Below, piece after piece: positions 3,209 through 49,631 of a stretch of DNA of 64,000 bases. The stretch spans positions 2,560,001 to 2,624,000 of the forward strand of contig OY760142.1 in the NCBI GenBank assembly GCA_963663225.1. The letters are read 5' to 3'. The translations under genes were made by a program, and so were the position numbers. This DNA is from Nitrospirota bacterium (lineage in GTDB: Bacteria; Nitrospirota; UBA9217). Numbering within the stretch: position 1 is the first letter of the stretch; each line of letters begins with the position of its first letter. The notes below the pieces were generated by a model that did no database searches, had not been told where the DNA came from, and worked only from the letters and a program-made list of their open reading frames with translations.

Positions 3209-5584
3209 ATGTCAACCTTAAAGACAGTTTTCCTGCTGTTCACGCTCCTTGTCCTCTCTTCCTGTGGAGGACTGAACCTTTCTCAGGACCCATCTGACCC
3301 GCTTTCTCGACGTGCTTCCCGTTTGCCCGAAACGGCTGAGCCGCTTCCTGCGAAGTATTTGCGAGAAGCTGCTGAACTCATTAAATCAGGAGATACCACT
3401 GCCGCACAAATAATCTTATGGCGTGTTAAGGAACAATACCCCGGTACGCCATGGTATGGGCGGGCTCTTTTTTTGACGGAGCGTGTTTTTATTCAACTGG
3501 ATCAGGCCGAAGATGCTGATGCGGTGATGCTCCGCATTCAGAGTGAATATCCCGAACTTGCTGATTATGCGATATTTATCCTCGCTGAATATTACTATGC
3601 TCGGGAACGCTATACGAAGGCGGCTACGCTTTACCAGCTTATCCTTGACCGTTATACAAAAAGTTTATTAACGGTGCGGTCATTATTTCTGCGGTCCCAG
3701 GCTCTTCTGAAGGCAGAAGCGTATCTTTATGCGCAGGACTCTTTCGAAAAATTTTTAAACGATAATCCCCGCTCTGAGTTTGCTCCTGCGGCGGCCTTAG
3801 GACTAGGAAGAGCATTACGAGGACAATCGCGTATTCCTGAAGCGACGAAGACATATTTGGATGTATTGATTAAATATCCAGGCGCTCCTCTTGAACAGGA
3901 TATTGAAGATGAGCTTGCGGAGTTAAGAAAAACCAACAGCGTTCCCGGCTTTTCTCCCGAGGATATATATGACCGGGGGAAAAACCTGTACCGTTCCAAA
4001 CAATACAGCAGGGCATTTGATACATTCTCACAGTTGGATCTGTCTGAATTGAATCCTCAGTACCAACCGGATGTCCTGTTTATGAACGGAATTGCCGCTT
4101 TTAATTCAGGAAGACGAAATGAAGCAACCGGCAGTCTTCAGAAACTGATTCGACAATATCCCGACGATCCACGCATACCGGAGGCATTAAACTGGCTTGG
4201 AAAATCCTATAGCAGATTGGGAGACTGGGAGAAAGGCAGCGAGGCGTTCCAAAAAATTCTTGATCGATTCTCAGAAAGTGAATGGGCGGATGATGCGCTG
4301 TTTCTTCTCGGAAATATCAATCGGGAAACCGGCGACGTCGACAAATCCTTGTCCTATTACGAAACGCTGGTAAAAAAATATCCACAAAGCAAGTTTGCCG
4401 ACAGCGCGCTTTGGTGGCAGGCATGGTTGTGGTATGCCGTCGGTGATTATCAAAAAGCCACGCGCAGTCTTCAAAGACTGACGGTACGATATCCGCGTTC
4501 ATTCCTGGTGCATCAGGCCCGGTACTGGCAGGGGAAAATGGCTGAAAAAATCGGAGATTTCCCCCGTGCGCGTACCTATTATCGGTTGGTGCTTAATAAA
4601 GGATTATATACCTTTTACGGTTACCGCGCTGCAGAGCGGATCGCTTTTTTAGAAGATTTCACCTCGGCACAACAAAGACCTGTACCGGATGAAGAGCTCG
4701 TTGCATGTAAAAAAAATGAATGTCCTGATGAACCTGTGTATTCCTATGCGGGAGATGAAACGCCGCCGGTCTGGACGGAGGAAACGCGTTCGCTTCTGAC
4801 AGCTGATCCCTCTTTCAAAAAAACACTCGATCTGCTTTATGTAGATATGAAAACAGAGGCCTCCGCCGAATTGTGGTCATTGCAGGAAAAATTCCCGCCA
4901 AAACGCGGTGCGCTGATAGGTCTGAGTAAGGCCTTTTTTGAACTTGGTGATTTCTACCGGTCGCATATTCTCGTGATCAAAAAATACGAGCGGTATCTGG
5001 AAACACCCGATACCAGTACTCCGGAAGACCTCTGGCGTCTTGCATATCCTCTGGCATATTGGAACAGCATTCTTTCGTATGCACGCAAATACGGTCAGGA
5101 TCCGTATTTCATCGCCGCGATAATCAAAGAGGAAAGTCAATTTAAAACAGATGCATTATCTCCGGCAGGCGCGCGGGGTCTCATGCAGGTAATGCCGGCG
5201 ACAGGCGTGCGTGTCGCGCAGCAGATCAAATTGCGGAAGTTTAACCGCGAAAAACTCTATGAAGTAGATACCATCATCAATATAGGAACATGGTATATCA
5301 GCCATCTCATGAAACGATACAAGGGCGATCCTTTTTTTGTTGCGGCTGCATATAATGCCGGCCCTGACGCCGTTTCTCAATGGATCAAAAAAAACATAAA
5401 TGGCAATGACCGAGACGCATTTGTGGAATCGATACCGTATATGGAAACAAGAGGGTATGTAAAAAAAGTTATGAGAAATTATTTCGAATATAAAAGAATT
5501 TACGGAAAAACCTCAGAGGTTCCACCGCTGGTACCTGTATTGCCTGCGGATTCCATTCGGGCGGTTATTGTGGAAAAAAGATAA
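3209..5584 (+). CDS. slt: TPR-containing soluble lytic murein transglycosylase (Slt70-like) lipoprotein
   Basis: Lipobox LSSC, many TPR repeats, C-terminal SLT motifs IKEES, GARGLMQVMP, AAYNAG, ETRGYV. Confidence 0.9.
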   Translation: MSTLKTVFLLFTLLVLSSCGGLNLSQDPSDPLSRRASRLPETAEPLPAKYLREAAELIKSGDTTAAQIILWRVKEQYPGTPWYGRALFLTERVFIQLDQAEDADAVMLRIQSEYPELADYAIFILAEYYYARERYTKAATLYQLILDRYTKSLLTVRSLFLRSQALLKAEAYLYAQDSFEKFLNDNPRSEFAPAAALGLGRALRGQSRIPEATKTYLDVLIKYPGAPLEQDIEDELAELRKTNSVPGFSPEDIYDRGKNLYRSKQYSRAFDTFSQLDLSELNPQYQPDVLFMNGIAAFNSGRRNEATGSLQKLIRQYPDDPRIPEALNWLGKSYSRLGDWEKGSEAFQKILDRFSESEWADDALFLLGNINRETGDVDKSLSYYETLVKKYPQSKFADSALWWQAWLWYAVGDYQKATRSLQRLTVRYPRSFLVHQARYWQGKMAEKIGDFPRARTYYRLVLNKGLYTFYGYRAAERIAFLEDFTSAQQRPVPDEELVACKKNECPDEPVYSYAGDETPPVWTEETRSLLTADPSFKKTLDLLYVDMKTEASAELWSLQEKFPPKRGALIGLSKAFFELGDFYRSHILVIKKYERYLETPDTSTPEDLWRLAYPLAYWNSILSYARKYGQDPYFIAAIIKEESQFKTDALSPAGARGLMQVMPATGVRVAQQIKLRKFNREKLYEVDTIINIGTWYISHLMKRYKGDPFFVAAAYNAGPDAVSQWIKKNINGNDRDAFVESIPYMETRGYVKKVMRNYFEYKRIYGKTSEVPPLVPVLPADSIRAVIVEKR

Positions 5585-5659
5585 AAAAACAATAATTTTA
5601 ATGAGAAAGCGACGAATTTTTTCTGTTTTTTGCATGACTACGGAAAGAAGGCGGAAACA

Positions 5660-5884
5660 GTGAATAAACATGAAGAGGCGTTCTCGGAAATAGAAATGCG
5701 GGTAACACTGCTTCTAGCTCAGAACGCTCGTCTTAAAAACCGGATCGATGACCTCGATAAAGAACTGCTCCGTATCCGCAACGATGCGCAGCACGTCGAG
5801 CATTTGTATGGAGAAAAACTACATATTAAGAAAAAAATCGAGCAGATTCTCCAGTCGCTTGAAGACGCTACCGGCAAAGATTAG
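5660..5884 (+). CDS. Small coiled-coil protein, ZapB-like
   Basis: About 74 aa heptad-rich coiled coil; GTG start after AAGG; no zapA nearby. Confidence 0.5.
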   Translation: MNKHEEAFSEIEMRVTLLLAQNARLKNRIDDLDKELLRIRNDAQHVEHLYGEKLHIKKKIEQILQSLEDATGKD

Positions 5885-5909
5885 CTGCCGCCGTTCATCA
5901 TTAACGCTT

Positions 5910-6809
5910 ATGAAACCGGAACTGGATATTAATAAAACGCTTCTTGACAACCTGTACGAAGGCGTGTATTTCGTAGACCGCGAGAGAAAAATAACATACT
6001 GGAACAAGGGCGCGGAACGAATTACCGGATATACCGCACAGGAAGTCCTCGGCAAGTCCTGCTCGGATGATATTCTCATGCATGTGGACATGAGTGGAAA
6101 CGCTCTCTGTGAAGAAAACTGTCCGGTGCTGATAGCCCTTCAAAACGGTCATGAACAGAACGCGGAAATGTTTTTGCAGCATAAGAACGGCCACCGGATA
6201 CCGGTAAATATGCGCCTTGTTCCTTTACGGGATGCAGATAATGAAATCATCGGTGGCATTGAAATCTTTACCATCAGCACCCCGGCCGCAACGGCGATCG
6301 ACCGGCTTGCCGAACTTGAAAGAATTGCTTTCCTTGACGGACTTACCGGCCTCGCAAACAGACGATATGCAGAAATCACCTTGAATGCGCGCTTGGAGGA
6401 ACTGGAACGTTATGGCTGGAAATTCGGCGTTCTGTTCATTGACATCGACTTTTTTAAGACAATCAATGACGTGTATGGACATGACGTAGGCGACGATGTA
6501 CTTATTATGGTAGGGAACACATTGAGGAACAGTGTCCGGCCATTTGATATCGTAAGTCGGTGGGGAGGCGAGGAATACCTTGCCGTGATTATTCACGTTA
6601 CGAAAGAGGAGCTAGCGCTGACGGCAAACCGTTGCCGTTTCCTCGTGCAGCAATCCAATCTGCCGTCAGTGCCGCATCTTCGTGTTACCGTTTCTCTTGG
6701 AGGCACGCTTGCCCGTCCTGAAGATACCGTATCAACGCTTTTCAAAAGAGTGGACAGGCTTATGTACCGCAGTAAAGAAACCGGCAGAAACCGTGTGACG
6801 ATAGAGTGA
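5910..6809 (+). CDS. PAS-GGDEF diguanylate cyclase
   Basis: PAS (YWNKGAERITGY), DGLTGLANRR, DIDFFK, RPFD I-site, GGEEY. Confidence 0.92.
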   Translation: MKPELDINKTLLDNLYEGVYFVDRERKITYWNKGAERITGYTAQEVLGKSCSDDILMHVDMSGNALCEENCPVLIALQNGHEQNAEMFLQHKNGHRIPVNMRLVPLRDADNEIIGGIEIFTISTPAATAIDRLAELERIAFLDGLTGLANRRYAEITLNARLEELERYGWKFGVLFIDIDFFKTINDVYGHDVGDDVLIMVGNTLRNSVRPFDIVSRWGGEEYLAVIIHVTKEELALTANRCRFLVQQSNLPSVPHLRVTVSLGGTLARPEDTVSTLFKRVDRLMYRSKETGRNRVTIE

Positions 6810-6921
6810 TTGTGTGTGATGTCAATTTGTCTGTCGCCTGCGGCAGTCAGTCAACATGAATGTTTCTGAACCGTTTCGCGTGCCGTTCACAGCGAGTCGC
6901 TCCATTCACCAGAATGCCAGC

Positions 6922-8103
6922 TCAAGAGGTGCAAAGCCTATTCCGTCCGCCCTGCTTTGCTTTATAGAGCGCGGCATCTGCGCGGTTTAATACTGTTTCT
7001 ATTTGCTGGTCCTGCGGTTGGAGCGTGGAAACGCCGAGAGAAATTGTGATGCGCAGCGTTGCGGCTGCAATTTGAAAATCAATTTGTTCAACGGATGGCC
7101 GTAAACGCTCGGCAATGTTTAATCCGCTGTCCAGGCCGGTTTCGGGCAATAACGCAGCGAATTCATCGCCCCCCAGTCTGCCAAAACTGTCCATGCTGCG
7201 CAAGTTTTTGCGGCAGACCGAAGCTACCGTAGTCAGAATCTGGTCACCGGTTGCATGACCATGAAGATCGTTAATTTGCTTGAAATTATCGACATCGATC
7301 ATACATACGGTCAGGGGGTGATTCAGGCGTCGCGCGCGTTGAAATTCGCTCTCGCAAACTTCGGAAAAATGACGATTATTGGACACGCCGGTCAGAAAAT
7401 CCGTGCGGGCCAAGTGCTGTAATTCAACTTGTGCCTTTCTTAATTCCAGTTCCATTCTCTCGCTGTTGAGCAAAACGAAGCTCAACGTCCATGTTAATCC
7501 AAGAAGAAGCGAAGACAGATAAAAAACTGTCTGGAGTTCGTTGGTCATAAAAATACTATGTATTTCCGGGGTTACATGGCTGATCAGGGCACGAGCAGTC
7601 AAAATAAGAGCGTAAAGCGTGAGCAAGGTACTCGTAAACCATGAGGTAGACCTTAGTTCTTCGGAAGTGCCCAGAAGCAATTCAAAAGCGCACCGAAAAT
7701 ACATTGCCGCAGCAAATATCGAATAGATAATAATACGGGTTTCAAGCCGATTGTTCACATAGGTAAAATAGGCCAGGATTGCCATTATGACGGCAAGAGC
7801 GGCAATATTGAACGTCCACTGGGCATGATCTCCGTGAAAACGACGGATGCCTTCAAAAATGCATACAGTGGCTCCGAGAAGAAGCAGGTTCGAAAGCAGA
7901 ATGGTTACGTAGTCCGGGAGTATGTCGCGCAAAGAGAATAAAAAAAACCCCGTCGTATGCAGTGCAGTGCTTGCAGCCCATAAACCGAACCCGGAATAGG
8001 TTTTGCGTGTTCGCCAAAGCAGGAGCATGAGCAGGCTGATTAGTACAGAAACAGCTATCAGGACGACCGCTAGGGTGCGAGTGTCAAGTGTGAATGTCTG
8101 CAT
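6922..8103 (-). CDS. Membrane-bound diguanylate cyclase (multi-TM + GGDEF)
   Basis: Several N-terminal TM segments; RSMD I-site and GGDEF. Confidence 0.92.
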   Translation of the reverse strand: MQTFTLDTRTLAVVLIAVSVLISLLMLLLWRTRKTYSGFGLWAASTALHTTGFFLFSLRDILPDYVTILLSNLLLLGATVCIFEGIRRFHGDHAQWTFNIAALAVIMAILAYFTYVNNRLETRIIIYSIFAAAMYFRCAFELLLGTSEELRSTSWFTSTLLTLYALILTARALISHVTPEIHSIFMTNELQTVFYLSSLLLGLTWTLSFVLLNSERMELELRKAQVELQHLARTDFLTGVSNNRHFSEVCESEFQRARRLNHPLTVCMIDVDNFKQINDLHGHATGDQILTTVASVCRKNLRSMDSFGRLGGDEFAALLPETGLDSGLNIAERLRPSVEQIDFQIAAATLRITISLGVSTLQPQDQQIETVLNRADAALYKAKQGGRNRLCTS

Positions 8104-11437: not shown

Positions 11438-12166
11438 TTAAGAGTTTTTGTTGCCTGTTTCTGCTGATTTATCAGAACGGACAGCGCCGGAAAAACTGAT
11501 AAAGGCTTCTTTGGCCGCGCACTGTTCAGCTTCTTTTTTGCTTTTTCCCGATCCCCGGCCAAAAAAAACATTTTGAATAAAAATTTCCACTTCAAAACGT
11601 TTCCGGTGCTCCGGACCTATTTCAGAAACGATACGGTATTCGGGCAGTTGCTTCAACCGTATTTGGCAGAGTTCCTGGAGTGCCGTTTTATAGTCAAGAA
11701 TGGTTGAAGTGACGGATATTTTTTTTATTATATCACTGAAGGCCCGGAGAAAGAACGGTTTGCAAGCTTCCATGCCTGCGTCAAGATAGACGGCTGCGGT
11801 AAGGGCTTCAAGGCTGTTTGCGAGGAGTGAACCTTTTTCCCGGCCACCGGTCAGCTCTTCTCCTCTGCCGAGCAGAAGAAAGTCTCCGAGATTAAGTTTC
11901 CGTGCGACTGCTGCAAGTGACTGTTCGTTTACAACAGCTGCTCGAAATTTAGAAAGATCGCCTTCCTGTGCAGCGGGGCAGAGTATCATGAGGTATTCGC
12001 TCACGATGAGATTGAGAACGGCATCACCAAGAAACTCCATCCGTTCGTTGTGGGTGGAAGCTTTATTTTCGTTAGCGTAGGATTTATGCGTGAGAGCTCG
12101 CTTGAGAAGATCAATATCTTTGAAAAAATACGATATCTCTTGCTGGATACCCTCGCAACCGCGCAT
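11438..12166 (-). CDS. rnc: Ribonuclease III
   Basis: NERMEFLGDAVL signature and C-terminal dsRBD; start moved to ATG 12166, just past the fabF stop. Confidence 0.95.
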   Translation of the reverse strand: MRGCEGIQQEISYFFKDIDLLKRALTHKSYANENKASTHNERMEFLGDAVLNLIVSEYLMILCPAAQEGDLSKFRAAVVNEQSLAAVARKLNLGDFLLLGRGEELTGGREKGSLLANSLEALTAAVYLDAGMEACKPFFLRAFSDIIKKISVTSTILDYKTALQELCQIRLKQLPEYRIVSEIGPEHRKRFEVEIFIQNVFFGRGSGKSKKEAEQCAAKEAFISFSGAVRSDKSAETGNKNS

Positions 12167-12167
12167 T

Positions 12168-13409
12168 TTAAGGCCTGAATTTCTTGAACACCACGCAGGC
12201 ATTCGTGCCGCCGAATCCGAAGGAGTTGGACATGGCGACATGTACTTGCGCTTCCCGTGCTTTTCCGGGAATATAATCAAGGTCGCACTCGGGATCCGGG
12301 TTTTCAAGGTTAATGGTCGGCGGAAGTATTCCACGATTGAGGGCCAAGACGGAAATTACTGCCTCCACACCTCCGGCTGCGCCGAGCAAATGACCTGTCA
12401 TGGATTTTGTGGAACTTACCGCTATTTTATAGGCATGATCGCCAAATACCGTTTTTATAGCGGCCGTTTCATTTTCGTCGTTAAATTTTGTGGAAGTACC
12501 ATGGGCATTAATGTATTCCATTTCACCGGGCGTAACACGGGCGTCATGAATTGCCATTTTCATGCATCGGGCAGCGCCTTCCCCGTTCGGGGCGGGTGAT
12601 GTCATATGATATGCATCTCCGGTCATACCATAGCCAACAATTTCTGCCAAAATGACGGCGCCGCGTTTCCGGGCATGTTCCAAATCTTCAAGGATCATAA
12701 CTCCCGACCCTTCACCCATGACAAAACCATCGCGTTCAGCGTCGAAGGGGCGGCTGGCTCGTTGTGGTTCGTTGTTTCTGGTTGAGAGGGCCTTCATGGC
12801 GTTGAAACCGCCGACTCCGAGAGGGCAGATGCAGGATTCCGTGCCACCGGCCATCATGGCAAGAGCATCACCGCGTTGGATGATTTTAAACGCATCTCCG
12901 ATGGAGTGAGTCCCTGTTGCGCATGCGGTGACCACACAAGAGTTTGGTCCTTTCATGCCATAGCGGATGGAAATCTGGCCGGACGCCAGATTAACAATCA
13001 GCATGGGAATGAAAAAAGGGGATATTTTGCGATGGCCGCTCGCAAGATATATTTTGTGGTATTTTTCTATGGCGGGCAGTCCACCCATTCCGGAACTCAC
13101 CAGGACGCCTATATGTTCGGCATTTTCTTGCGTGACGGTAAGACCGGATTGATCCATAGCCATTTGACTCGCCGCAATTGCAAGATGTATAAAACGGTCC
13201 ATTTTTTTGATTTCTTTTGCATCAATGTACGCGTTTGGATCGAAGCCGTGTATTTCTCCTGCAATCTGTGTCGGGATGGTTTTGTCGTCGAATTGAGTAA
13301 TCGGGCCGATTCCCGATTTGCCTGAAATCAGACCTTCCCAAGACTTTTCGGTGTCCAAGCCAACAGGGGTTACCATCCCAACGCCGGTGACCACAACTCT
13401 TCTCATCAA
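12168..13409 (-). CDS. fabF: 3-oxoacyl-ACP synthase II
   Basis: [34 protein letters not shown]. Confidence 0.97.
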
Positions 13410-13552: not shown

Positions 13553-13855
<303 letters not shown>

Positions 13856-13859: not shown

Positions 13860-14600
13860 TTACATATACATTCCGCCGTTAACATGAATTACCTGGCCTG
13901 TAATGTAGGAAGCCAACGGTGACGCAAGGAAGCGAACAGCATTTGCGACATCCTCTGGTGTGCCGAGCTTGCCCATGGGAATTTGCTTTGCCAGCTCTTC
14001 TTTTACGGTGTCGGAAAGCGATTGGGTCATGGCTGTATCAATAAATCCGGGTGCAACAGCGTTTGCCGTGATTCCACGATTGGCGTATTCCCTTGCAATG
14101 GTTTTGGTAAGACCGATAAGACCTGCCTTAGAGGCCACATAATTAGCCTGTCCTGCATTGCCCATAGCCCCCACAATTGAAGCGATATTGATAATGGTGC
14201 CGCTTCGTTGTTTCGTCATATGTTTCAGGGCTGCTTTGGAGCACAGAAAAGCACCTTTCAAGTTGATGCTGAGTACAAGATCCCAATCTTCATCTTTCAT
14301 GCGCAGAATCAGCCCGTCTCTGGTAATTCCTGCGTTATTGATGAGCAGATCAATCTTGCCGAACTCCTTAATGACTTGATCGATCATGGCTGCAACTTCA
14401 TCTGCAGCAGCTACATTTGCCTTGAGCGCAAGGGATTTTCTGCCTGTAGTTTGAATATCCCCAGCGGTTTTTTGTGCCATTTCCAGATTCACGTCACAGA
14501 CTGCCACATCAGCTCCATCGGCAGCCAGTGCAAGTGCAATTTGTTTTCCGATGCCCTGCGCTGCGCCGGTCACGAGAGCAGCTTTACCGGTGAGATTCAT
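13860..14600 (-). CDS. fabG: 3-oxoacyl-ACP reductase
   Basis: TGAAQGIG, NNAGITRD, GQANYVASK. Confidence 0.96.
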   Translation of the reverse strand: MNLTGKAALVTGAAQGIGKQIALALAADGADVAVCDVNLEMAQKTAGDIQTTGRKSLALKANVAAADEVAAMIDQVIKEFGKIDLLINNAGITRDGLILRMKDEDWDLVLSINLKGAFLCSKAALKHMTKQRSGTIINIASIVGAMGNAGQANYVASKAGLIGLTKTIAREYANRGITANAVAPGFIDTAMTQSLSDTVKEELAKQIPMGKLGTPEDVANAVRFLASPLASYITGQVIHVNGGMYM

Positions 14601-14695: not shown

Positions 14696-15628
14696 TTAAA
14701 CACCGATAACGTTGAGCGTATCGCTCATGCTTTTTTGGTCTTCAACGTTCAGTACTTTTGCCGTTTTGGCAATACGTTTCACGAGCCCGGAAAGGACCTT
14801 GCCCGGTCCGATTTCAACAAAAGTATCATACCCATCCGCAACCATAGCGGTGATCGAGTCTTCCCAGTAAAGAGGGAAACTGATCTGTTTGACAAGAGAA
14901 TGTTTGAGTTCTGCAGCTGTACGGAGAAATAGTGCATCCGCGTTGTTTACAATAGGGATACGGAGGTCGTTGATCTTAACTCTTTCAAGCTCCTGTGCCA
15001 AACGTTCGCCCGCCTGCTTCATTAATGCGCAGTGCGAAGGAACACTTACGGCAAGAGGCATTACTTTTTTTGCCCCTCCTGCCTTGGCAAGCTCCATAGC
15101 TTTTTCCACGGCTTTTTTTTCGCCGGCGATAACAATCTGGCCTGGAGAGTTGTAATTTGCAGGGGCAACTATACCATTTTTGGCCGCTTCAAGGCAAGTT
15201 TTTTCTAGATCCTGCCGTTCCATGCCCAGAATGGCGGCCATTAATCCAGTGCCTGCCGGGACGGCCTCCTGCATAAAACGGCCGCGTTTTTGCACCAGTG
15301 AAATTGCATCGGCCAATTCAAATCCTTCAGCAGCAGTTATGGCGGTATATTCTCCCAAGCTGTGACCTGCTGCTGCAGTCGCTTGCAGTCCGCGCCGCTC
15401 GATCGGTCGTAACAGAGCAATGCTTGCCGCGAGCAATGCAGGCTGGGTATTTTCCGTGAGGTTTAATTTTTCAACCGGACCATGAAAACAAAGTTGTTCA
15501 AGATCATATCCGAGCACTGTACTTGCAATCTCAAAGACTTCTTTTGCTTCTTTGAAATTCTCGACGAACTCTTTTGCCATGCCGAGATACTGTGATCCCT
15601 GGCCGGGAAACATAATTGCAATTTTCAT
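14696..15628 (-). CDS. fabD: Malonyl-CoA:ACP transacylase
   Basis: FPGQGSQ, GHSLGEY, VSVPSH, EIGPGKVL. Confidence 0.97.
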   Translation of the reverse strand: MKIAIMFPGQGSQYLGMAKEFVENFKEAKEVFEIASTVLGYDLEQLCFHGPVEKLNLTENTQPALLAASIALLRPIERRGLQATAAAGHSLGEYTAITAAEGFELADAISLVQKRGRFMQEAVPAGTGLMAAILGMERQDLEKTCLEAAKNGIVAPANYNSPGQIVIAGEKKAVEKAMELAKAGGAKKVMPLAVSVPSHCALMKQAGERLAQELERVKINDLRIPIVNNADALFLRTAAELKHSLVKQISFPLYWEDSITAMVADGYDTFVEIGPGKVLSGLVKRIAKTAKVLNVEDQKSMSDTLNVIGV

Positions 15629-15694
15629 TGCTGACCCCTCTAAAAACCGATTACTGTGGTTGCAGAATATTTCAGATGCAAAAAAAAGAAGAAT

Positions 15695-16888
15695 TTATCC
15701 CCTCAGCTCCTTAAATTTCCTGATCATAATCGGCACGACTTCCATGACATCGCCTACAATACCATACGTTGCCACGTTAAAGATAGGGGCATGCGGGTCT
15801 TTGTTGATTGCGACGATTACATCGGATGATTGCATGCCGGCAAGGTGTTGAATGGCTCCGGATATACCGCATGCGATATACAGCTTGGGGCAAACGGTTT
15901 TACCGGTCTGGCCGACTTGGTGCGAGTAGGGTATCCATCCCTCATCTACCGCTGCTCGTGAAGCGCCCACAGCGCCGCCTATCGTTTTTGCCAGTTCTTC
16001 GAGAAGGGCAAAATTCTTCGGATCAGAAAGACCGCGGCCGCCTGATACGATAATATCGGCTTCACAGATATTCACCGTTTGTGTTATGTCTTCAATGGTT
16101 TTGGTAACCCTTGTCCGGAGGCATTGTTGTTCTTTGAAGGAAACAGGGATGATTTCTCCTTTACGCGACGAATCGGGGTCTGCTTTTTTCATTACTTTAT
16201 GCCGGACGGTTGCCACTTGCGGCCGATGATGCGGAGTGACGATGGTGGCCATGATATTTCCCCCGAACGCGGGCCGGGTCTGCAGCAGATTTCCATTTTC
16301 AGGATCAATATCGAGCGAAGTGCAGTCAGCCGTGAGTCCGGTATGCAGAGCACAGGCTACTTTGGGAATAAAGGAACGACCGATTGCGGTGGCTCCCGCG
16401 AGAATAATTTCAGGCTTGTGGAGCTTGGCCAATGTCGTGAGTATTGCGCTGTATGGATCATCGTTGAAATCTTGCAGTGCGGGATCGTCAGCGACGTATA
16501 CGGTATCAGCGCCATAAGCGATAAGATCTTTTGCCTTCTCGCCGATGTTATGGCCGATAAATACCGCGGTAAGCTTGGCGTTTCTTTTGTCAGCAAGTTT
16601 TCTGCCTTCGCCCAGAAGTTCGAGCGTCACGCTGGAGATAGAGGATTTATGCTGCTCGGCAAATACCCAAACCCCCTTGTAAGCAGAAATATCTGCTGCT
16701 ACAGCCGCCGGTTCTTCTTCAGTTCGTTCGATGGCTTTGAGCTCACAAGCGTCGACGCAGGCACCGCAAATTGTACAATTATCATTGATGAATGCTTTTC
16801 CGTCACGCATCTCGATTGCGCTGAACGGACAGCTGGATATGCAGACTTCGCAGCCCGTACATTTATCGAGAATGATTTTTATACCCAC
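15695..16888 (-). CDS. etfA: Electron transfer flavoprotein alpha subunit with N-terminal 2x[4Fe-4S] ferredoxin domain
   Basis: CTGCEVCISSCP and CTICGACVDAC clusters; TGLTADCT, TRPAFGGN, QVGQTGK, GISGAIQH. Confidence 0.93.
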   Translation of the reverse strand: MGIKIILDKCTGCEVCISSCPFSAIEMRDGKAFINDNCTICGACVDACELKAIERTEEEPAAVAADISAYKGVWVFAEQHKSSISSVTLELLGEGRKLADKRNAKLTAVFIGHNIGEKAKDLIAYGADTVYVADDPALQDFNDDPYSAILTTLAKLHKPEIILAGATAIGRSFIPKVACALHTGLTADCTSLDIDPENGNLLQTRPAFGGNIMATIVTPHHRPQVATVRHKVMKKADPDSSRKGEIIPVSFKEQQCLRTRVTKTIEDITQTVNICEADIIVSGGRGLSDPKNFALLEELAKTIGGAVGASRAAVDEGWIPYSHQVGQTGKTVCPKLYIACGISGAIQHLAGMQSSDVIVAINKDPHAPIFNVATYGIVGDVMEVVPIMIRKFKELRG

Positions 16889-16948
16889 TGTTGACTCCTT
16901 TTACATGCAGAACCGTGGCAGCATATTACGGCGCTGTCATCCTTAATA

Positions 16949-17734
16949 TTATATCAGCGATTGTTCTTTTAATTTAGTTGCGACCTGTTCGACCTGCTGT
17001 TCAATGGTGCCGCTCAGAACCTCCCGTTGGCCACGAGGGGTAGGAGGGAAGATTTTTACGACTTTCGTCGGAGAACCTTTAAGTCCGCACAGATTTTCAT
17101 CAGCACTAATATCCTTAGCCGTCCAGACGGTAACCTTGAAATTTTTTGCTTTCATTTTACCTTTTAGCGACGGCAGGCGGGGTTCGTTGATTTCTTTGAC
17201 GACGCTGATTACGGCCGGGAGCGATGTCTCCACGACATCGTAGCCTTCATCCATCATGCGCTCGGCCAGCATTTTGCCGTTTTCGATCGACTCAATCTTC
17301 TTGATGAAGGCGACAAAGGGAACGCCGAGGACATCAGCAGTTTCAGGCCCCACCTGTGCGGTATCTCCGTCGATGGCTTGTTTGCCGGATATGACCAGGT
17401 CAAAGGCACCGATTTTTTTAATGCCTTTCGACAGCGTATACGAGGTCGCCCAGGTGTCTGAACCAGCAAAGGCCCTGTCTGAAAGGAGCACTGCGTCATC
17501 AACGCCGAGAGAAACGGCTTCTTTCAGCGCTTCGGCAGCCTGGGGCGGCCCCATGGAAAGGACAATTACTTTTCCGCCATGTTTTTCGCGCAGTCGAAGA
17601 GCCTCTTCAATGGCATACATATCATAGGGGTTGATGATGCTCGGCACACCGTCCCGAATAAGAGTATTCGTTTCGCGATTGATTTTTACTTCTGACGTAT
17701 CGGGGACTTGTTTGATTAATACGATTATATTCAT
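16949..17734 (-). CDS. etfB: Electron transfer flavoprotein beta subunit
   Basis: KQVPD, NPYD, SDRAFAGSDTWAT, GKQAIDGDTAQVG, NEPRLPS. Confidence 0.95.
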   Translation of the reverse strand: MNIIVLIKQVPDTSEVKINRETNTLIRDGVPSIINPYDMYAIEEALRLREKHGGKVIVLSMGPPQAAEALKEAVSLGVDDAVLLSDRAFAGSDTWATSYTLSKGIKKIGAFDLVISGKQAIDGDTAQVGPETADVLGVPFVAFIKKIESIENGKMLAERMMDEGYDVVETSLPAVISVVKEINEPRLPSLKGKMKAKNFKVTVWTAKDISADENLCGLKGSPTKVVKIFPPTPRGQREVLSGTIEQQVEQVATKLKEQSLI

Positions 17735-17833
17735 TTACTTTCTCCGAACTTCAAAAAACATCTTTATATCTCAGCAGCAACCAGGATATCTGTTATTCAT
17801 AAAAAGTCATCGGATCAGCTGTTACTGCCGGAA

Positions 17834-18991
17834 TTATTTTTGCTTCATAGCCGCCTTGATCATATCCAATGCAATGACATTTCTTTGGATCTGATTGGTG
17901 CCTTCATAAATTTGAAGGATTTTTGCATCCCGCATCATTTTTTCGACCGGATATTCTTTCATATACCCCGAACCGCCCATGACCTGTACAGCATCGGTGG
18001 TCACCCGCATGGCAGTGTCCGTTGCGAAAAGTTTTGCCATTGCTGATGCGCGAGAGATATCTTTTGCGCCGCTGTCTATGAAGCGTGCCACGGAATATAT
18101 AAGTGCACGAGCAGCTTCAGTCTGTGTTTGCATATCTGCAAGCATATGCTGGACGGCCTGGAAAGAAGCAACCGGTTGTCCGAACTGTACCCGTTGTTTC
18201 GCAAACTTGAGGGCTTCATTGATGGCGCCTTGTGCCACACCCACTCCCTGGGCGCCCACACCGGTCCTGGAACTGTCAAGCGTTTTCATGGTAACGATGA
18301 AACCCATTCCTTCCTTTGCGATCAGGTTTTCCTTCGGGATGCGGCAGTTGTTGAAAATCAGCTCAGTGGTGGATGAAGCGCGGATGCCCATCTTGTTTTC
18401 TTTTTTTCCAAAAGAAAATCCCGGTGTGCCTTTTTCCACGATGAACGCCGCCGCGCCGCGGTGCCCTTTTGACCGATCGGTAATGGCAATAACCGAGTAG
18501 ATTTCTGCTTCCCCGCCGTTTGTGATCCATTGCTTTGTGCCGTTCAGGACATATTCATTGCCATCAAGTTTTGCGGTTGTCTGTATGCCGCCGGCATCGC
18601 TTCCTGCATTGGCTTCAGTCAGTCCGAATCCAACGAGCCGTTTCCCTGCCGCGATGTCAGGAAGATACTTCTTTTTCTGGGCATCAGAACCGAACAGAAG
18701 AATAGGGTAGGTGCCCAGTGCATTGGCGGCATAACTTGTCGCAACCCCAACGCATGCTTTTGACAATTCTTCAACTGCGATGCAGAGCTCGAGGGTGTTT
18801 TTTCCGAGACCGCCATATTCCTCCGGAATAAACAAACCAAAAAGATCCGACTGCGCAAGTGCTTTCATGATGTCCCAAGGGAACTTGTTTTGCTCATCCA
18901 ATTCCGCGCGAACAGGCACAATTTTTTCTTCAGCGATCTGGCGTGCAAGGTCGCGAATCATTATCTGTTCTTCTGTCAGCAAGTAGTCCAT
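17834..18991 (-). CDS. Acyl-CoA dehydrogenase (butyryl-CoA/short-chain type)
   Basis: FGLTEANAGSDA, NGTKQWITNG, KMGIRAS, RVQFG, IYEGTNQIQR; ATG 18991 after GGAGG. Confidence 0.93.
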   Translation of the reverse strand: MDYLLTEEQIMIRDLARQIAEEKIVPVRAELDEQNKFPWDIMKALAQSDLFGLFIPEEYGGLGKNTLELCIAVEELSKACVGVATSYAANALGTYPILLFGSDAQKKKYLPDIAAGKRLVGFGLTEANAGSDAGGIQTTAKLDGNEYVLNGTKQWITNGGEAEIYSVIAITDRSKGHRGAAAFIVEKGTPGFSFGKKENKMGIRASSTTELIFNNCRIPKENLIAKEGMGFIVTMKTLDSSRTGVGAQGVGVAQGAINEALKFAKQRVQFGQPVASFQAVQHMLADMQTQTEAARALIYSVARFIDSGAKDISRASAMAKLFATDTAMRVTTDAVQVMGGSGYMKEYPVEKMMRDAKILQIYEGTNQIQRNVIALDMIKAAMKQK

Positions 18992-19056
18992 GTGGCGTCC
19001 TCCAGTAAGTTTCAAATTAAGAAAAAAGGCGGGAAATTAGTGTTGGTATGGCGATA

Positions 19057-20037
19057 TCACCATCGTATCAAGGCCGATCCCCACGTAAGCCCTCCACCAA
19101 ACGCTTCAAGCAAGACAAGATGATTGTCTTTTATTCTGCCGTCTCTGACCGCTTCATCAAGCGCCATGGGAATTGAAGCAGCAGACGTATTGCCGTATTT
19201 CGGGAGGGTGAGTACTACTTTTTCCATAGGCATCTTAAGTCGTTGGGCCATTGCCTGGATAATCCTCAGATTTGCCTGATGGGGGACAAGGAAATCAATA
19301 TCCTCATGTTTTAATTTATTATGCTCCAATGTTTCTTGCGCGACTTCTCCGAGTGCCCGGACCGCGGCCTTGAAGGTCTCATTTCCCTTCATTTTAATGA
19401 AGTGCAAACGCTTGTCTACGGTATCGTGAGATGCCGGATGAAGGGTCCCGCCGCCGGGGATGGAAAGCAAATGACCGAGAGCACCGTCCGAATGTAAATG
19501 GGTAGAGAGTACGCCATGCTTTCCAGCGAATCGCTGCAACACAACAGCACCCGCGCCGTCTCCAAAAAGCACGCAGGTAGTCCGGTCTTCCCAATCGGTG
19601 ATCCGGGACAGTATCTCAGAGCCGACCAAAAGAATATTTTTGCATGCTTCTGATTTGATATGTGCGCTTGCTATCGATAGGCCGTAAATGAAACCTGAAC
19701 AGGCGGCATAAATATCAAAGGCGGCAGCTTTTTTCGCACCGAGTTTATGCTGAAGCAGACATCCGCAGCTCGGCATGGCCATGTCCGGCGAGGTTGTCGC
19801 AATGATGATCATGTCCAGTTCCTGCGGAGATAATTTCGCCATTTTGAGTGCTTTCAGGGAGGCCTCGTAGGCGAGATCAGATGTGTTTTCGCTTTTATCC
19901 GCGATATGGCGCTGCTTGATGCCGGTGCGTTCAGTTATCCAGTCATCTGAAGTATCCAGCATCTTTTCCAGGTCATAGTTGGTGACGACCTTCCTGGGTG
20001 CATAGGATCCAATTCCGGTTATGCGTGCTTTTATCAT
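19057..20037 (-). CDS. fabH: 3-oxoacyl-ACP synthase III
   Basis: AACSGF, LFGDGAGA, PHQANLRI, GNTSAAS, FGGGLTWG. Confidence 0.97.
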   Translation of the reverse strand: MIKARITGIGSYAPRKVVTNYDLEKMLDTSDDWITERTGIKQRHIADKSENTSDLAYEASLKALKMAKLSPQELDMIIIATTSPDMAMPSCGCLLQHKLGAKKAAAFDIYAACSGFIYGLSIASAHIKSEACKNILLVGSEILSRITDWEDRTTCVLFGDGAGAVVLQRFAGKHGVLSTHLHSDGALGHLLSIPGGGTLHPASHDTVDKRLHFIKMKGNETFKAAVRALGEVAQETLEHNKLKHEDIDFLVPHQANLRIIQAMAQRLKMPMEKVVLTLPKYGNTSAASIPMALDEAVRDGRIKDNHLVLLEAFGGGLTWGSALIRW

Positions 20038-21047
20038 TTTGGTTTCACCAAGCTCATGTTTTTTTCAATGTCTGCCTTGATATGCTTGTTTATTTCGCTG
20101 TTGGCAAAGTCGGTAGCGACACGGATGGCGTTCTTAATGGCCCGGTCTGAAGAACGTCCGTGGCTGATGATGCTGATGCCGTTGATGCCCAGAAGCGGCG
20201 CTCCGCCGTATTCTGCGTAATCGAGGCGGCGTTTGAGGATGTTGAAAGCCGGTTTCATCATCAAATAGCCGAGTTTCCGGACCAGGTTGTTTCCGATATT
20301 TTCCCTGATGATTGATGTGATGGTTTCCGCCACCGCTTCTGATACCTTGAGAACAACATTGCCGATGAAACCGTCGCAGACGACCACGTCCGCTTTGCCG
20401 GTCAAGACATCACGCCCTTCTACGTTCCCGATGAAGTTGAGAGATGTCTCTGTCAGAAGTTTGAAAGCTTCTTTTGTCAGTTCGTTGCCTTTGGTTTCTT
20501 CTTCGCCGATCGAAAGGATCCCGACCCGGGGGTTCAGATTCTTTAATGAGTATTTGGCAAAAACTTCCCCCATGACGGCAAATTGAAGCAGATGGTTCGG
20601 TTTGCAGTCAACGTTAGCACCCACGTCCAGCACGATGGATGTGCCCTTGATGGTCGGCATGTAGGTGGCGATTGCCGGCCGCTCAACTCCTTCCAGGGGA
20701 CCAAGCACAAAGAGTGAGGTGGCCATCGCCGCACCGGTATGTCCCGCGCTGATGACTGCCACCGCCTCTCCACTTTTAACAAGCTGATTTGCCACGCGGA
20801 TGGAAGAGTCTTTTTTCCTGCGAAAAACCGTTGACGGAGAATCAAGCATGTCCACAACTTCCGTGGCATTCCGTATCTCAATGGGCAGCGATTGCGCATC
20901 AGGATATTTTTTGAGCTCTGCACAGATTAGTTGTTCAATGCCCACCAGAATGATGCCGACGCCGAATGCTCGCGCTGCCTGCACTGCACCTGCGACGATG
21001 GCGTGAGGTGCATTATCTCCTCCCATGGCATCAACAGCGATTTTCAT
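20034..21047 (-). CDS. plsX: Phosphate acyltransferase PlsX
   Basis: IAVDAMGGD, LDVGANVD, GNVEG, CDGFIGN, HGRS. Confidence 0.97.
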   Translation of the reverse strand: MKIAVDAMGGDNAPHAIVAGAVQAARAFGVGIILVGIEQLICAELKKYPDAQSLPIEIRNATEVVDMLDSPSTVFRRKKDSSIRVANQLVKSGEAVAVISAGHTGAAMATSLFVLGPLEGVERPAIATYMPTIKGTSIVLDVGANVDCKPNHLLQFAVMGEVFAKYSLKNLNPRVGILSIGEEETKGNELTKEAFKLLTETSLNFIGNVEGRDVLTGKADVVVCDGFIGNVVLKVSEAVAETITSIIRENIGNNLVRKLGYLMMKPAFNILKRRLDYAEYGGAPLLGINGISIISHGRSSDRAIKNAIRVATDFANSEINKHIKADIEKNMSLVKPK

Positions 21048-21329: not shown

Positions 21330-21845
21330 CTATTTTTTTAGTAAATCTTTTAAAACGGAAAACGCGCCAGACGTTTCCGGTGAATCATTGCTGCATTTGC
21401 AGCCTTTTTCATTACGGTCCGCCCCGCACCGGCTACAGAGTCCTTTGCACTCCGGATGATGAAGCGGTACCATCGGCAGGGCGATAAGCAATTGCTCCCG
21501 CAGGAATTCAACAGGCTCTATTTCATTGCCCTCATAAAATTCCATGTCAAGCTCTCCCTTTCCGAGCTCATGTTCATGAACGGTTCCGAGAGAGTTTGCT
21601 GGTGCAATCTCAAAGTTTACATCGGCATCGATAGAGTATGTAAAACTTTTTAAACAACGGCTGCATTGAAGCAACGGTGCCGCCGTTACATGTCCGGTCA
21701 CCCTGAAAATTCCGGTCCCACCGGACTTAAACACGAGAACCGCTGTAACGGCTACAGATGCTGTTCCCGTGTCAAAAAGATCAATTTTTTGATCAAAGCT
21801 CAGTGTAAGCCCTTCGGGCGGTATATCGCTGATTTTGATGGCCAT
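21330..21845 (-). CDS. yceD: YceD/DUF177 family protein
   Basis: CSRCL and CKGLCSRCG motifs; upstream of rpmF. Confidence 0.92.
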
Positions 21846-21877: not shown

Positions 21878-21906
21878 ATTATATAGAGGAGCACCGATTT
21901 TGTCAA
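21878..21906 (-). promoter_or_regulatory. Consensus sigma70 promoter for the yceD-rpmF-plsX-fab cluster
   Basis: Minus strand TTGACA-N17-TATAAT. Confidence 0.8.
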
Positions 21907-39974: not shown

Positions 39975-40298
39975 ATGAAAACGAAATTAAAAGTCAGTAA
40001 TCCCACCGAGCTATATAAATCCATTCAATCCAGCGTTAAACGCAGCTGTGTCAAGCATAAGAGCTTAATCAAAGAAATAAACCGCTACAAGTTGAATATA
40101 GAAGATGTCGATATTCTTTTTCAGACTATCGGAGACGATGAAGAGATAAGGTACAACCGTCTACAAAGAGGAAAAGAAAACCGGATCAGTGTCATTGTAG
40201 CTATGAAGCAGAGCCGTTTTGAGCCGGTTCAGCTCATTATTGATACTGGACTGATAAAAGAATTAGATAAACTAGATAAAGCAGGGACACCTGCTTAG
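39975..40298 (+). CDS. Hypothetical protein
   Basis: ORF with AAGGAG RBS; no recognisable motif. Confidence 0.6.
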   Translation: MKTKLKVSNPTELYKSIQSSVKRSCVKHKSLIKEINRYKLNIEDVDILFQTIGDDEEIRYNRLQRGKENRISVIVAMKQSRFEPVQLIIDTGLIKELDKLDKAGTPA

Positions 40299-40327
40299 CA
40301 ACCAAATACTAAAAGGAGGGTAAAAAC

Positions 40328-40630
40328 ATGGAAAAGCTATTGAAAATAGACACTAGCAAAGACACTGGTGATGGAATGAAAGAAGCGAACAAAAGTCTAC
40401 TGGACGCAACCGATGAAATTGTCAAGGCACGTACAAAAATTGCGTTCTTGCTTAATGCAATATCTGGCGGAGAGCATGTTGATAGAGATTATTTCTTTAC
40501 AATAGACAATCCAGACGGACAGGAAGGTTTATGCTTTATTCTAATGGAAATTCACGAGCATCTTTGCCAGGCGATTAAACCACACTGGCTAGAAGGTGAC
40601 AGTAAACCAGAAGAGACAGTAACATTGTAG
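40328..40630 (+). CDS. Hypothetical protein
   Basis: ORF with AGGAGG RBS. Confidence 0.65.
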   Translation: MEKLLKIDTSKDTGDGMKEANKSLLDATDEIVKARTKIAFLLNAISGGEHVDRDYFFTIDNPDGQEGLCFILMEIHEHLCQAIKPHWLEGDSKPEETVTL

Positions 40631-40637
40631 GCACTCG

Positions 40638-40672
40638 GCCCCCTGGGTGCGCAACCGGGGGGCTTTACTTTT
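40638..40672 (+). terminator. Intrinsic terminator
   Basis: GCCCCCTGG-loop-CCGGGGGGC then TTTACTTTT. Confidence 0.7.
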
Positions 40673-40882
40673 CGAATAAGGAAGAGTAGACTTTTGAAGA
40701 CCGTATTAATAAACTAAAAGCCCATTTAGTAAAGCACCGAGACCAGCGCTTCATCTGGTTTGAACCAGACTCCCTTCATTCCTGGGACTAAAAAGGCTTT
40801 TACTTTAGTCCGGCGTGGCGTGTCAGTCGACACGCTTCACGCTGGATAGTTATATTATATCACTATAGATTAGGAGAAATAA

Positions 40883-41104
40883 ATGCCAAAACTTTCTGAA
40901 AAATTAGCAAAAGCACGAAAGGGGAAAAACTTATCAATGAGCGACGTAGAGCGTCTGTCTAGAAAGATTGCTACTGATTATCGAGGAAAGATAACGCAGG
41001 GTTATATATCGAGGCTTGAATCTGGCAGTGAAACAAACCCATCTTATCAGAAGATAATGACACTATCAAAAATATATAAAATTAAACCCGGCAGCTTATT
41101 TTGA
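40883..41104 (+). CDS. XRE/Cro-CI family HTH regulator
   Basis: LAKARKGKNLS...ITQGYISRLESG..NPSYQKIMTLS. Confidence 0.88.
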   Translation: MPKLSEKLAKARKGKNLSMSDVERLSRKIATDYRGKITQGYISRLESGSETNPSYQKIMTLSKIYKIKPGSLF

Positions 41105-41177
41105 CATCAGTAAATTTTAAACTAAAACGGTATTTTCCTTATCTTCTTAGGACTGCTAAAGAAAAGGAGGCAAAAAA

Positions 41178-41678
41178 ATGAAAATATTTTTTATATACTG
41201 CTCGCTCTTATTGTTTTTATCTGCATGTGCTAACTGCAAACAAATGCATTCTCTGCAAATTGGCATGTCAGAGCAAGAGGTTGTGAAAATTATGGATCGT
41301 TCACCAAGTAAAGTTAGTGCATCTAGTAACTCTAAAATTATTTATTATTCATGCCGAGGGTCTATGCCAGATTCTGGTATGAAATTTATTGATAATAAGC
41401 TGGTTGCTTATGGGCCCGAAAGTCAAGTCAACGCAGACGCTTCCACGAGCCTTGTAGCACTAACACAAAATTCTTGGTCAAAAGAAGGAAGCACAGATGC
41501 TAATCAATTTAATAAAGATAAATATGATTGTGCAAAACAAGCAGAACGATCATATGCTACAGGAGGAAGTGGATTAGTTGGCATGATGAAGGCAAGTCAG
41601 TTCGAAGAAAAACAAGATAAAAAAGAATATGATTTTTTCGTTATGTGTATGGAATCGAAGGGTTATAAGAAAAAGTAG
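41178..41678 (+). CDS. Lipoprotein (SmpA/OmlA-like N part, CMESKGY C-terminal motif)
   Basis: Lipobox LSAC; LQIGMSEQEVVKIM. Confidence 0.65.
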   Translation: MKIFFIYCSLLLFLSACANCKQMHSLQIGMSEQEVVKIMDRSPSKVSASSNSKIIYYSCRGSMPDSGMKFIDNKLVAYGPESQVNADASTSLVALTQNSWSKEGSTDANQFNKDKYDCAKQAERSYATGGSGLVGMMKASQFEEKQDKKEYDFFVMCMESKGYKKK

Positions 41679-41739
41679 TTTCGCGAATGTTTCAGAAGGT
41701 TTCGGGTAGTGTTTGTGGATATGACGAAAGGAGAATAGC

Positions 41740-42285: not shown

Positions 42286-42323
42286 AAATATCTCTAAGGA
42301 ACAATTAAATATGCTGAGAAAGG

Positions 42324-43016: not shown

Positions 43017-43048
43017 GAATAATTTTAATGGATAAATGGGAGGGCATT

Positions 43049-44218: not shown

Positions 44219-44305
44219 TCAACTCATTTTTTGATTAGTGCAAAGCATTTTTTCTTATTTTTAATCCATTTAAAAACAGTTAATAGAAGGCTAATTGGTG
44301 ATAAA

Positions 44306-44461
44306 GTGGCAAACAAGGACGACCAGAAAGAAGTTGTTACTTTTGAAGAACTTTTGTTGAGCAACACAATTCAACAAGAAGCCATAGTCAATTTGCTAGT
44401 TAAAAAGGGCATAATAAGCAAAATAGAGCTACTTGAAGAGATTAAAAGAATTAGTACGTAG
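44306..44461 (+). CDS. Small hypothetical protein
   Basis: GTG start; EELLLSN...EAIVNLLVKKGIISKIELLEEIK helical pattern. Confidence 0.5.
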   Translation: MANKDDQKEVVTFEELLLSNTIQQEAIVNLLVKKGIISKIELLEEIKRIST

Positions 44462-44557
44462 CAAATGTAAATTATTTGATAAACCACGTATTAATCATTT
44501 GTGGATTGGAATTTAATAGGACATTATATAGATATTCTATCTAAGGAGGGTACTTAA

Positions 44558-49628: not shown

Positions 49629-49631
49629 GCT

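Follow-up and report, generated by a model that had tools for sequence, protein, structure and literature searches.

Which enzyme carries out the enoyl reduction of type II fatty-acid synthesis (FAS II) in a bacterium where no known reductase for enoyl groups on the acyl carrier protein (ACP) can be recognised? No other step of bacterial fatty-acid synthesis varies as much as the enoyl reductase or serves as often as a drug target, and genomes without any known enoyl reductase have long been noted in the field. The question is raised here by a 64,000-nucleotide stretch of a Nitrospirota genome of the class Thermodesulfovibrionia (the window, C1:2560001-2624000), taken from a single contig of 3,255,001 bp that is 98.99% complete. 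Three genes in this window, encoding an acyl-CoA dehydrogenase (ACAD)-fold flavoprotein (Acd) and the two subunits of an electron-transfer flavoprotein (EtfB and EtfA), lie inside a fatty-acid synthesis operon. We propose that the Acd-EtfB-EtfA complex is the enoyl-ACP reductase of FAS II in this organism, in place of FabI or FabK, and we put the probability of this reading at about 0.6. Since acd and etfBA are located inside the operon of an anaerobe with no known enoyl-ACP reductase, they most likely perform the missing step, by a route so far undescribed.

The genes form a compact minus-strand row at 10.3-21.9 kb of the window, in the order yceD-rpmF-plsX-fabH-acd-etfB-etfA-fabD-fabG-acpP-fabF, followed by rnc and a radical-SAM gene. 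They were identified by Pfam and NCBIfam profile matches; the name rpmF we presume from the sequence pattern. The features are as follows.

21878..21906, minus strand: sigma-70-like promoter site 5' of yceD, TTGACA-17-TATAAT, 12/12 positions, a consensus match only
21330..21845, minus strand: yceD (DUF177), first operon gene; PF02620, 92 bits
21128..21310, minus strand: rpmF (ribosomal protein L32), 60 aa; open reading frame (ORF) and translation
20034..21047, minus strand: plsX, phosphate acyltransferase; TIGR00182, 394.6 bits, above cut-off
19057..20037, minus strand: fabH, beta-ketoacyl-ACP synthase III; TIGR00747, 445.9 bits, above cut-off
17834..18991, minus strand: acd, ACAD-fold flavoprotein, 385 aa from ATG; three ACAD Pfam domains
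16949..17734, minus strand: etfB, bifurcating-type electron-transfer flavoprotein, small subunit; PF01012
15695..16888, minus strand: etfA, large subunit of the same flavoprotein; ferredoxin domain with 2x[4Fe-4S] at the N-terminus, about 16679-16888; ETF, ETF_alpha, Fer4
14696..15628, minus strand: fabD, malonyl-CoA:ACP transacylase; TIGR00128, 346.5 bits, above cut-off
13860..14600, minus strand: fabG, 3-oxoacyl-ACP reductase; adh_short_C2, 242 bits, the genome's top short-chain dehydrogenase/reductase (SDR)
13553..13789, minus strand: acpP, acyl carrier protein; PP-binding, 66.7 bits, DSLD motif invariant in the AcpP alignment
12168..13409, minus strand: fabF, beta-ketoacyl-ACP synthase II; N- and C-terminal ketoacyl-synt domains
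11438..12334, minus strand: rnc (RNase III), ORF as listed; TIGR02191, 260 bits, match starting at ORF residue 64

These gene calls confirmed the initial annotation, which had placed acd, etfB and etfA co-directionally between fabH and fabD, spaced 60-99 bp apart. The individual spacers measure 65 bp between fabH and the ATG of acd, 99 bp between acd and etfB, 60 bp between etfB and etfA, and 66 bp between etfA and fabD. The listed acd ORF extends to a TTG at 19015 (17834-19015). The true start is likely the ATG at 18991, because a GGAGG lies 7 nt ahead of it and database relatives are 385 aa long. The true start of rnc probably lies downstream of the listed one.

The remaining FAS II cycle is complete in the genome (FabH, FabD, FabG, AcpP, FabF and FabZ), and the reductases were searched for genome-wide. 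The best match to the FabK model in the whole genome reached 104 bits against a cut-off of 453. FabV matched neither PF12242 nor NF010177 anywhere in the genome, while in the same search NF010177 gave 587 bits in another genome, which served as the positive control. Six SDRs of the adh_short_C2 family were found; one is the operon FabG, and the other five show YxxxK motifs. No FabI model was among the 25 best families of these five proteins, and the E. coli FabI query gave at most 47 bits against the genome. No protein of the genome exceeded the FabL cut-off of 328, the best non-FabG SDR reaching 145 bits. Thus the absence of fabI, fabK, fabL and fabV, first noted for the cluster, holds across the whole of this 99%-complete single contig.

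A second gene of the FabZ/FabA family (94 bits) adjoins a second FabG (302.8 bits to TIGR01830, just above the cut-off) at C1:1395962-1398452, which suggests a second small fab-like cluster.

The same genome-wide search bears on the first rival explanation, in which the complex is an ordinary bifurcating Bcd-like enoyl-CoA reductase. It would act on coenzyme A (CoA) thioesters, for example to make primers for FabH such as butyryl-CoA or another acyl-CoA, and the true enoyl-ACP reductase would sit unrecognised elsewhere. We found that crotonase (ECH_1) has 0 matches in the whole genome. For Hbd (3HCDH_N) the matches were only partial, covering a third of the model and none above 27.8 bits, and thiolase (Thiolase_N) gave partial matches of at most 28.8 bits, the top one being FabH itself. 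The operon Acd is the genome's sole ACAD match in a search with Acd as query, and ETF domains occur in the two operon genes only. The lack of thiolase, crotonase and hbd, which had been described for the neighbourhood, therefore extends to the genome. With these enzymes missing, a CoA-based role has no visible substrate supply, and the alternative offered in the initial annotation, primer synthesis for FabH, is left without a substrate route.

The family assignment of Acd lends this CoA-based explanation support. Acd contains the Pfam domains Acyl-CoA_dh_N, _M and _1, and its nearest PDB relatives are butyryl-CoA dehydrogenases, namely Bcd of C. difficile (5ol2_C, 424 bits) and of A. fermentans (4l1f, 396 bits), followed by CarC (317 bits). 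It keeps the catalytic-base motif YEGT, the stretch iyegtnqiqr aligning with the same motif of 5ol2_C, and residues E363, G364 and T365 are invariant across the Acd alignment. The top NCBIfam match is the acryloyl-CoA reductase subunit AcrC (473.9 bits), but this score is below the cut-off of 640. The same holds for all three AcrABC equivalogs (NF042972, NF042971 and NF042970), which gave 473.9 vs 640, 234.9 vs 475 and 372.9 vs 600.

EtfA and EtfB resemble the subunits of bifurcating enzymes. EtfA aligned over its full length to CarE (6fah_A, 441 bits), including both CxxCxxCxxxC motifs, and its N-terminus matches Fer4 families at residues 3-61. The nearest match of EtfB is CarD (6fah_B, 266 bits), while canonical ETF beta subunits gave 97 bits or less. 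The best PDB matches of the two proteins were CarDE, Bcd-Etf, T. maritima Etf and LctBC (208-441 bits), structures that we take to be of the bifurcating type; canonical ETFs scored 86-170 bits. These matches assign EtfAB to the bifurcating rather than the canonical type. Based on the nearest relatives of Acd, EtfA and EtfB, the trio is a Bcd-EtfAB/CarCDE-type complex by family. A fold prediction of two Acd copies with AcpP, run without controls, scored 0.00 and gives no verdict.

We then considered gene order in related genomes. All 12 short loci of family f1 retain fabH-acd-etfB. Of nine longer loci with a high-identity Acd, five retain the full operon (three of family f1, two of f3); two further longer f1 loci keep yceD-plsX-fabH-acd-etfB-etfA and then diverge, and two loci (f4, f11) have acd alone. 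We also fetched 80 public loci with Acd as query and mapped their gene orders by tblastn. Many of them have fab genes beside acd, in the order plsX-fabH-acd-etfB-etfA-fabD-fabG-acpP-fabF, the same order minus fabD or minus fabH, or the order fabG-acpP-fabF-(rnc)-acd-etfB-etfA. Such fab-linked loci come from Thermodesulfobacteriota/'Deltaproteobacteria', Actinomycetota, Rokuibacteriota (Rokubacteria), Omnitrophota, Planctomycetota (Planctomycetia), Margulisiibacteriota and Saganbacteria. In other phyla there are at least four arrangements: acd after fabH, after plsX, after fabF/rnc, or etfB-etfA-fabD with acd elsewhere. In small Thermodesulfovibrio-like genomes (f15, f11, f4) acd is solitary and the etfB-etfA-fabD row persists, with ORFs overlapping or abutting. 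An acd-etfB-etfA row without fab genes in the fetched stretch was found in eight loci from Bacillota, in one from Elusimicrobia and in one other, and acd alone in three further non-Nitrospirota public loci. Around three of the non-fab-linked Bacillota loci (L079, L100, L095), crt, hbd and thl were not found; the neighbours are Wood-Ljungdahl, 3-deoxy-D-manno-octulosonate (KDO), arginine and other genes, so that these loci weigh neither for nor against the reductase reading. Overall, the synteny of acd/etfBA with fab genes, on which the initial proposal depended, is kept across Thermodesulfovibrionia families and recurs in other phyla in several orders.

Three f1 loci (L022, L023 and L033, from G011, G021 and a public metagenome-assembled genome) show a variant in which yceD-plsX-fabH-acd-etfB-etfA is followed about 2.5 kb on by a fabD-like gene of 37-40% identity, without the usual fabD-fabG-acpP-fabF row there.

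The position of the three genes has a direct counterpart in relatives that encode FabK. True FabK was found in four Nitrospirota genomes, three of family f2 and one of f7 (484-500 bits, above cut-off). In each of the three examined, fabK is located exactly between fabH and fabD in an otherwise collinear yceD-plsX-fabH-[fabK]-fabD-fabG-acpP-fabF row; in locus L131, for instance, the coordinates are 4208-5185 for fabH, 5214-6131 for fabK and 6179-7078 for fabD. Thus fabK in these relatives and acd-etfBA here share one operon slot. The earlier remark that fabK often follows fabH in other bacteria fits these three FabK-bearing Nitrospirota, where it occupies the fabH-fabD slot.

Next to this shared slot stands the distribution of the reductases. 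In a sample of 121 Nitrospirota genomes, each at least 90% complete, a high-identity Acd is present in 67, in 66 of them at 72-100% identity near full length and in one split in two; the other Acd matches number seven, at 36-46% identity. FabI (NF005717) scored 229-342 bits in 41 genomes, all in families without a high-identity Acd. Weak FabI matches were found in G081 (f17, 151 bits) and G110 (f16, 110 bits). True FabK is present in 4/121 genomes, one of which also has FabI. FabV, and FabL above its cut-off, were each found in 0/121. A strong FabI or true FabK therefore occurs in none of the 67 Acd-bearing genomes versus 44 of the 54 Acd-less ones. The ten genomes with neither are eight of family f16, G108 (f20) and G117 (f1, 90% complete).

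A similar pattern was observed in 81 Omnitrophota genomes. Acd is present in 38 of them, at 60-72% identity, and FabI-like proteins in 35 (22 with scores of 288-315 bits, the other 13 with 110-151 bits), with an overlap of 0. FabI-like proteins thus occur in 0/38 genomes with Acd vs 35/43 without it, and eight genomes have neither. No FabK above the cut-off was found in this sample; six genomes, five of them Acd-bearing, have nitronate monooxygenase (NMO)-family proteins of 123-190 bits. For other lineages we searched the 40 genomes behind the public loci, 27 of which have a fab-linked acd. No strong FabI was found among these 27, and one genome (G145) has a 157-bit match. The expected anticorrelation of Acd with canonical reductases is therefore seen as mutual exclusion with strong FabI and FabK in two phylum samples, with exceptions in other lineages. 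An enzyme acting on CoA thioesters leaves both the FabI exclusivity in two phyla and the slot shared by fabK and acd-etfBA unexplained.

The phylogeny of Acd also bears on the CoA-based explanation. A quick IQ-TREE tree (LG+G4) was built from 95 rows: 88 clade members, three paralogues of 44-46% identity from FabK-bearing genomes, and four ACADs of CoA-pathway operons. The latter came from annotated plasmid records, of Ilyobacter (CoA-transferase, thiolase, reductase, MaoC, acd, etfA), Pusillibacter (hbd, acd, etfBA) and Sporomusa (hbd, CoA-transferase, crotonase, two acd genes, etfBA). Left out were L006, L007, L013, L014, L016 and L022 as duplicate or near-identical rows, together with every row shorter than 370 aa. 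One group unites the 88 Acd rows, with SH-aLRT 100 and a stem length of 0.33 changes per site, and the four CoA-pathway ACADs and three paralogues fall outside it. Fab-linked rows occur on every deep branch of the clade, while the Bacillota rows form one inner group. Identity across phyla within the clade is 67-73%, which fits a constrained housekeeping enzyme.

We took a column as clade-specific if its conservation within the clade was 95% or more and each of the seven outgroups differed there. There are only eight (Y3, E22, D49, I113, Q154, R178, F194 and K351), so Acd is little changed from a Bcd. Such a small change would be expected if only the carrier end of a phosphopantetheine substrate differs, and it is also predicted by the CoA-based explanation. 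Taking both sides into account, namely the close Bcd relatives on one hand and the missing enoyl-CoA source and separate clade on the other, we consider an ordinary enoyl-CoA reductase unlikely.

A second rival holds that another protein is the enoyl-ACP reductase, either a FabX/FabK-like NMO protein, a quinone oxidoreductase (QOR)-like medium-chain dehydrogenase/reductase (MDR) or a FabL-like SDR, and that acd-etfBA is co-located or accessory. The NMO protein (C1:1593497-1594618; L001:1225-2328, minus strand; 367 aa) is the one that gave 104 bits to the FabK model. It matches 7e1q over its full length (205 bits) vs 69 bits or less for FabK structures, and has a Cys-rich C-terminal part. 7E1Q is the H. 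pylori FabX, a decanoyl-ACP dehydrogenase/isomerase (PMC8626469). By these matches the NMO protein is a full-length FabX homologue, in a strict-anaerobe lineage. FabX-like NMO proteins, which score about 100 bits against the FabK model in frames of 370-390 aa, occur in 30/30 sampled f1 genomes, as this rival would have it. However, they are also present in all six f5 genomes, alongside FabI, and absent from the Acd-bearing families f15 (0/9), f14 and f22. This distribution makes the FabX homologue a poor candidate for the reductase of the cycle.

The QOR-like MDR protein (L122:341-1558) gave 213 bits to the PIG3 quinone-reductase family. An MDR-type enoyl reductase was set aside because it is not conserved: the closed Thermodesulfovibrio-like genome G093 has just two MDR proteins, of the Tdh/sorbitol type, and two SDRs. 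The SDR at C1:419550-420383 gave the 145 bits to FabL mentioned above, and its YSAYATMK stretch fits both Yx3K and Yx6K; however, this score is far below the FabL cut-off and lower than FabG's own FabL score. In three small Acd-bearing Omnitrophota genomes FabG is the sole adh_short_C2 SDR, 1.7-2 kb from acd. We therefore regard a separate reductase as slightly less probable again than the enoyl-CoA reductase.

Many Nitrospirota relatives encode frames of 2300-2800 aa with a domain resembling either ACADs (30-35% identity) or NMO/FabK (125-138 bits), for example G015:C14:93185-93892, G085:C2:1550084-1551055 and G015:C9:53335-54303; no such match is listed for the organism's own genome. These frames may be megasynthases resembling polyketide or polyunsaturated fatty acid synthases.

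If Acd-EtfB-EtfA is the missing reductase, its mechanism may be outlined from its relatives. NADH would reduce the bifurcating FAD of EtfB. One electron would run downhill by way of the EtfA FAD to that of Acd, and after two rounds trans-2-enoyl-ACP would be reduced to acyl-ACP. The other electron would run uphill to ferredoxin by way of the two [4Fe-4S] clusters in the N-domain of EtfA. With ferredoxin reduced at each enoyl reduction, every elongation cycle would return low-potential electrons to the anaerobe. We infer the ACP-borne substrate, the reductive direction and the bifurcation from family membership together with the missing function. Given a reductase role, we put the probability of bifurcation at about four in five.

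The usual reaction of ACAD-fold enzymes is dehydrogenation, and Bcd-EtfAB can in principle run in both directions. A third rival is that the complex oxidises acyl-ACP as a desaturation or branch-point lipid enzyme in a FabX-like role, passing electrons to NAD+ with the aid of reduced ferredoxin (confurcation). The linkage to fab genes would suit such a modifying enzyme too. However, trans-2-enoyl-ACP is already supplied by FabZ, so a dehydrogenase adds nothing without an isomerase. The reductase step would also stay unfilled in genomes with no other candidate, and neither the exclusivity with FabI and FabK nor the shared fabK slot would be explained. We consider the oxidative role improbable, and the least probable of the rivals.

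Several observations weigh against the enoyl-ACP reductase reading. In other lineages, the 27 genomes with a fab-linked acd include four whose FabK-like proteins reach 260-358 bits, five more with such proteins of 164-196 bits, and one with FabV (587 bits). In eight Bacillota genomes the clade members lack a link to fab genes, and FabI (273-299 bits) is present as well in five of these, which also favours the CoA-based explanation. Other bacteria are known to have two enoyl-ACP reductases in a single genome, and two functional ones are reported for Enterococcus faecalis (PMC3791895). The eight f16 genomes (e.g. G110, G075 and G083) have no high-identity Acd, FabK or FabV, and their one FabI-like match is the weak one of 110 bits; six of the eight have a FabL-model match of about 160 bits, in a 270-aa frame distinct from FabG. 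Thresholds can thus miss a reductase, again as the CoA-based explanation supposes. Moreover, related genomes are not independent, and each phylum sample may therefore record one or few evolutionary events.

Other such points concern Acd itself. ACAD-fold enzymes known to use carrier-bound substrates are only remotely similar to it: Acd falls below the cut-offs of MbtN (87 vs 700 bits), RedW (262 vs 650) and PigA (245 vs 500), and gave 213 bits to the prolyl-ACP dehydrogenase 4irn. No ACP-docking sequence signature was found in the scan of clade-specific columns. The FabX homologue, the QOR-like MDR and the SDR with FabL likeness exist beside it as other candidate reductases. Taken together, comparative genomics supports the initial reading of Acd-EtfB-EtfA as a non-orthologous replacement of FabI, as a predicted function.

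The proposed reductase can be compared with several known systems. Like Bcd-EtfAB of Clostridioides difficile and Acidaminococcus fermentans (PDB 5ol2, 4l1f, 4kpu), it has an ACAD-fold catalytic subunit with YEGT and a bifurcating-type EtfAB, and it would likewise reduce an alpha,beta-enoyl thioester. Unlike in Bcd-EtfAB, Acd belongs to a separate clade, is encoded in a FAS II operon of a genome without crotonase, Hbd and thiolase, and is paired with an EtfA that has an extra ferredoxin domain; its substrate would be borne by ACP rather than CoA. With CarCDE of Acetobacterium woodii (6fah) it shares an EtfA like CarE, including the N-terminal 2x[4Fe-4S] domain, and an EtfB nearest to CarD. However, Acd is closer to Bcd than to CarC (424 vs 317 bits), and the context is fatty-acid synthesis, not phenylacrylate respiration.

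Among the enoyl-ACP reductases, FabK (the FMN-dependent enoyl-ACP reductase II) occupies the same fabH-fabD slot in related Nitrospirota and has the role proposed here. Its fold and cofactors are unrelated (TIM-barrel NMO family vs ACAD plus Etf), and it does not reduce ferredoxin. The SDR-type enzymes FabI, FabL and FabV also have the same proposed role, with a distribution exclusive of the Acd clade in two phyla; they are single-subunit NAD(P)H enzymes with no homology to the complex. The ACAD-fold carrier-protein dehydrogenases (MbtN, the prolyl-peptidyl carrier protein enzyme 4irn, RedW, PigA) share the fold and provide a precedent for phosphopantetheine-tethered substrates, but their sequences are distant and they oxidise, in secondary metabolism. 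H. pylori FabX is, like the proposed complex, a flavin/iron-sulfur enzyme of FAS II acting at C2-C3 of acyl-ACP. It differs in that it serves the synthesis of unsaturated fatty acids as a dehydrogenase/isomerase of the NMO fold (PMC8626469) and is no elongation-cycle reductase.

No published report of an ACAD/Etf enoyl-ACP reductase or of etf-fab linkage was found, in a literature thin on subscription journals. The term 'fatty acid' has 0 occurrences in the available part of PMC12042025, and the available part of PMC7382037 contains nothing relevant.

The complex is a candidate for the missing reductase step in whole lineages, including the Thermodesulfovibrionia, many Omnitrophota and others. 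It is an even bet that bifurcating Acd-EtfAB represents a fifth class of enoyl-ACP reductase, not homologous to the others, widespread among strict anaerobes from at least eight phyla and possibly ancestral there, with ferredoxin reduced in every elongation cycle. If this is true, flavin-based electron bifurcation extends from catabolism into core biosynthesis, the energy book-keeping of lipid synthesis in anaerobes changes, and the unusual conservation of Acd across phyla has a reason. Database relatives of Acd are routinely named butyryl-CoA dehydrogenase. Acd and Etf genes in such genomes could be misread as fatty-acid degradation, and on this reading many 'butyryl-CoA dehydrogenase / beta-oxidation' calls in anaerobe metagenomes would be biosynthetic genes.

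With regard to transcription of the operon, the initial annotation had named one consensus promoter at 21878-21906 and no obvious terminator. The promoter site does match the consensus at all 12 positions, but promoter-like sites in that region number 20 vs 16.6 +/- 4.8 in shuffles, i.e. no excess. It is therefore only plausible that one promoter drives the whole operon. The minus-strand scan of the operon found three terminator-like sites, all weak and inside coding sequence (21753-21738, 21675-21660 and 17339-17323), and none in the gaps flanking acd/etfBA. This agrees with the earlier statement on terminators between acd/etfBA and their neighbours. Two runs labelled 'METAGENOMIC RNA-Seq', probably DNA, gave short contigs from relatives with 90-99% likeness.

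Two other regions of the window lie outside the operon. A GGDEF diguanylate cyclase is encoded near it at 6922-8103 on the minus strand (TIGR00254, 174 bits). At 40000-55500 the GC content drops to 0.35-0.43. This region encodes a homologue of phage replication protein O (49632-50864), a DnaB-like helicase (50861-51754) and a phage-type integrase (54229-55446), together with several ORFs that have no family or DUF domains only, and it is probably an integrated mobile element or prophage remnant.

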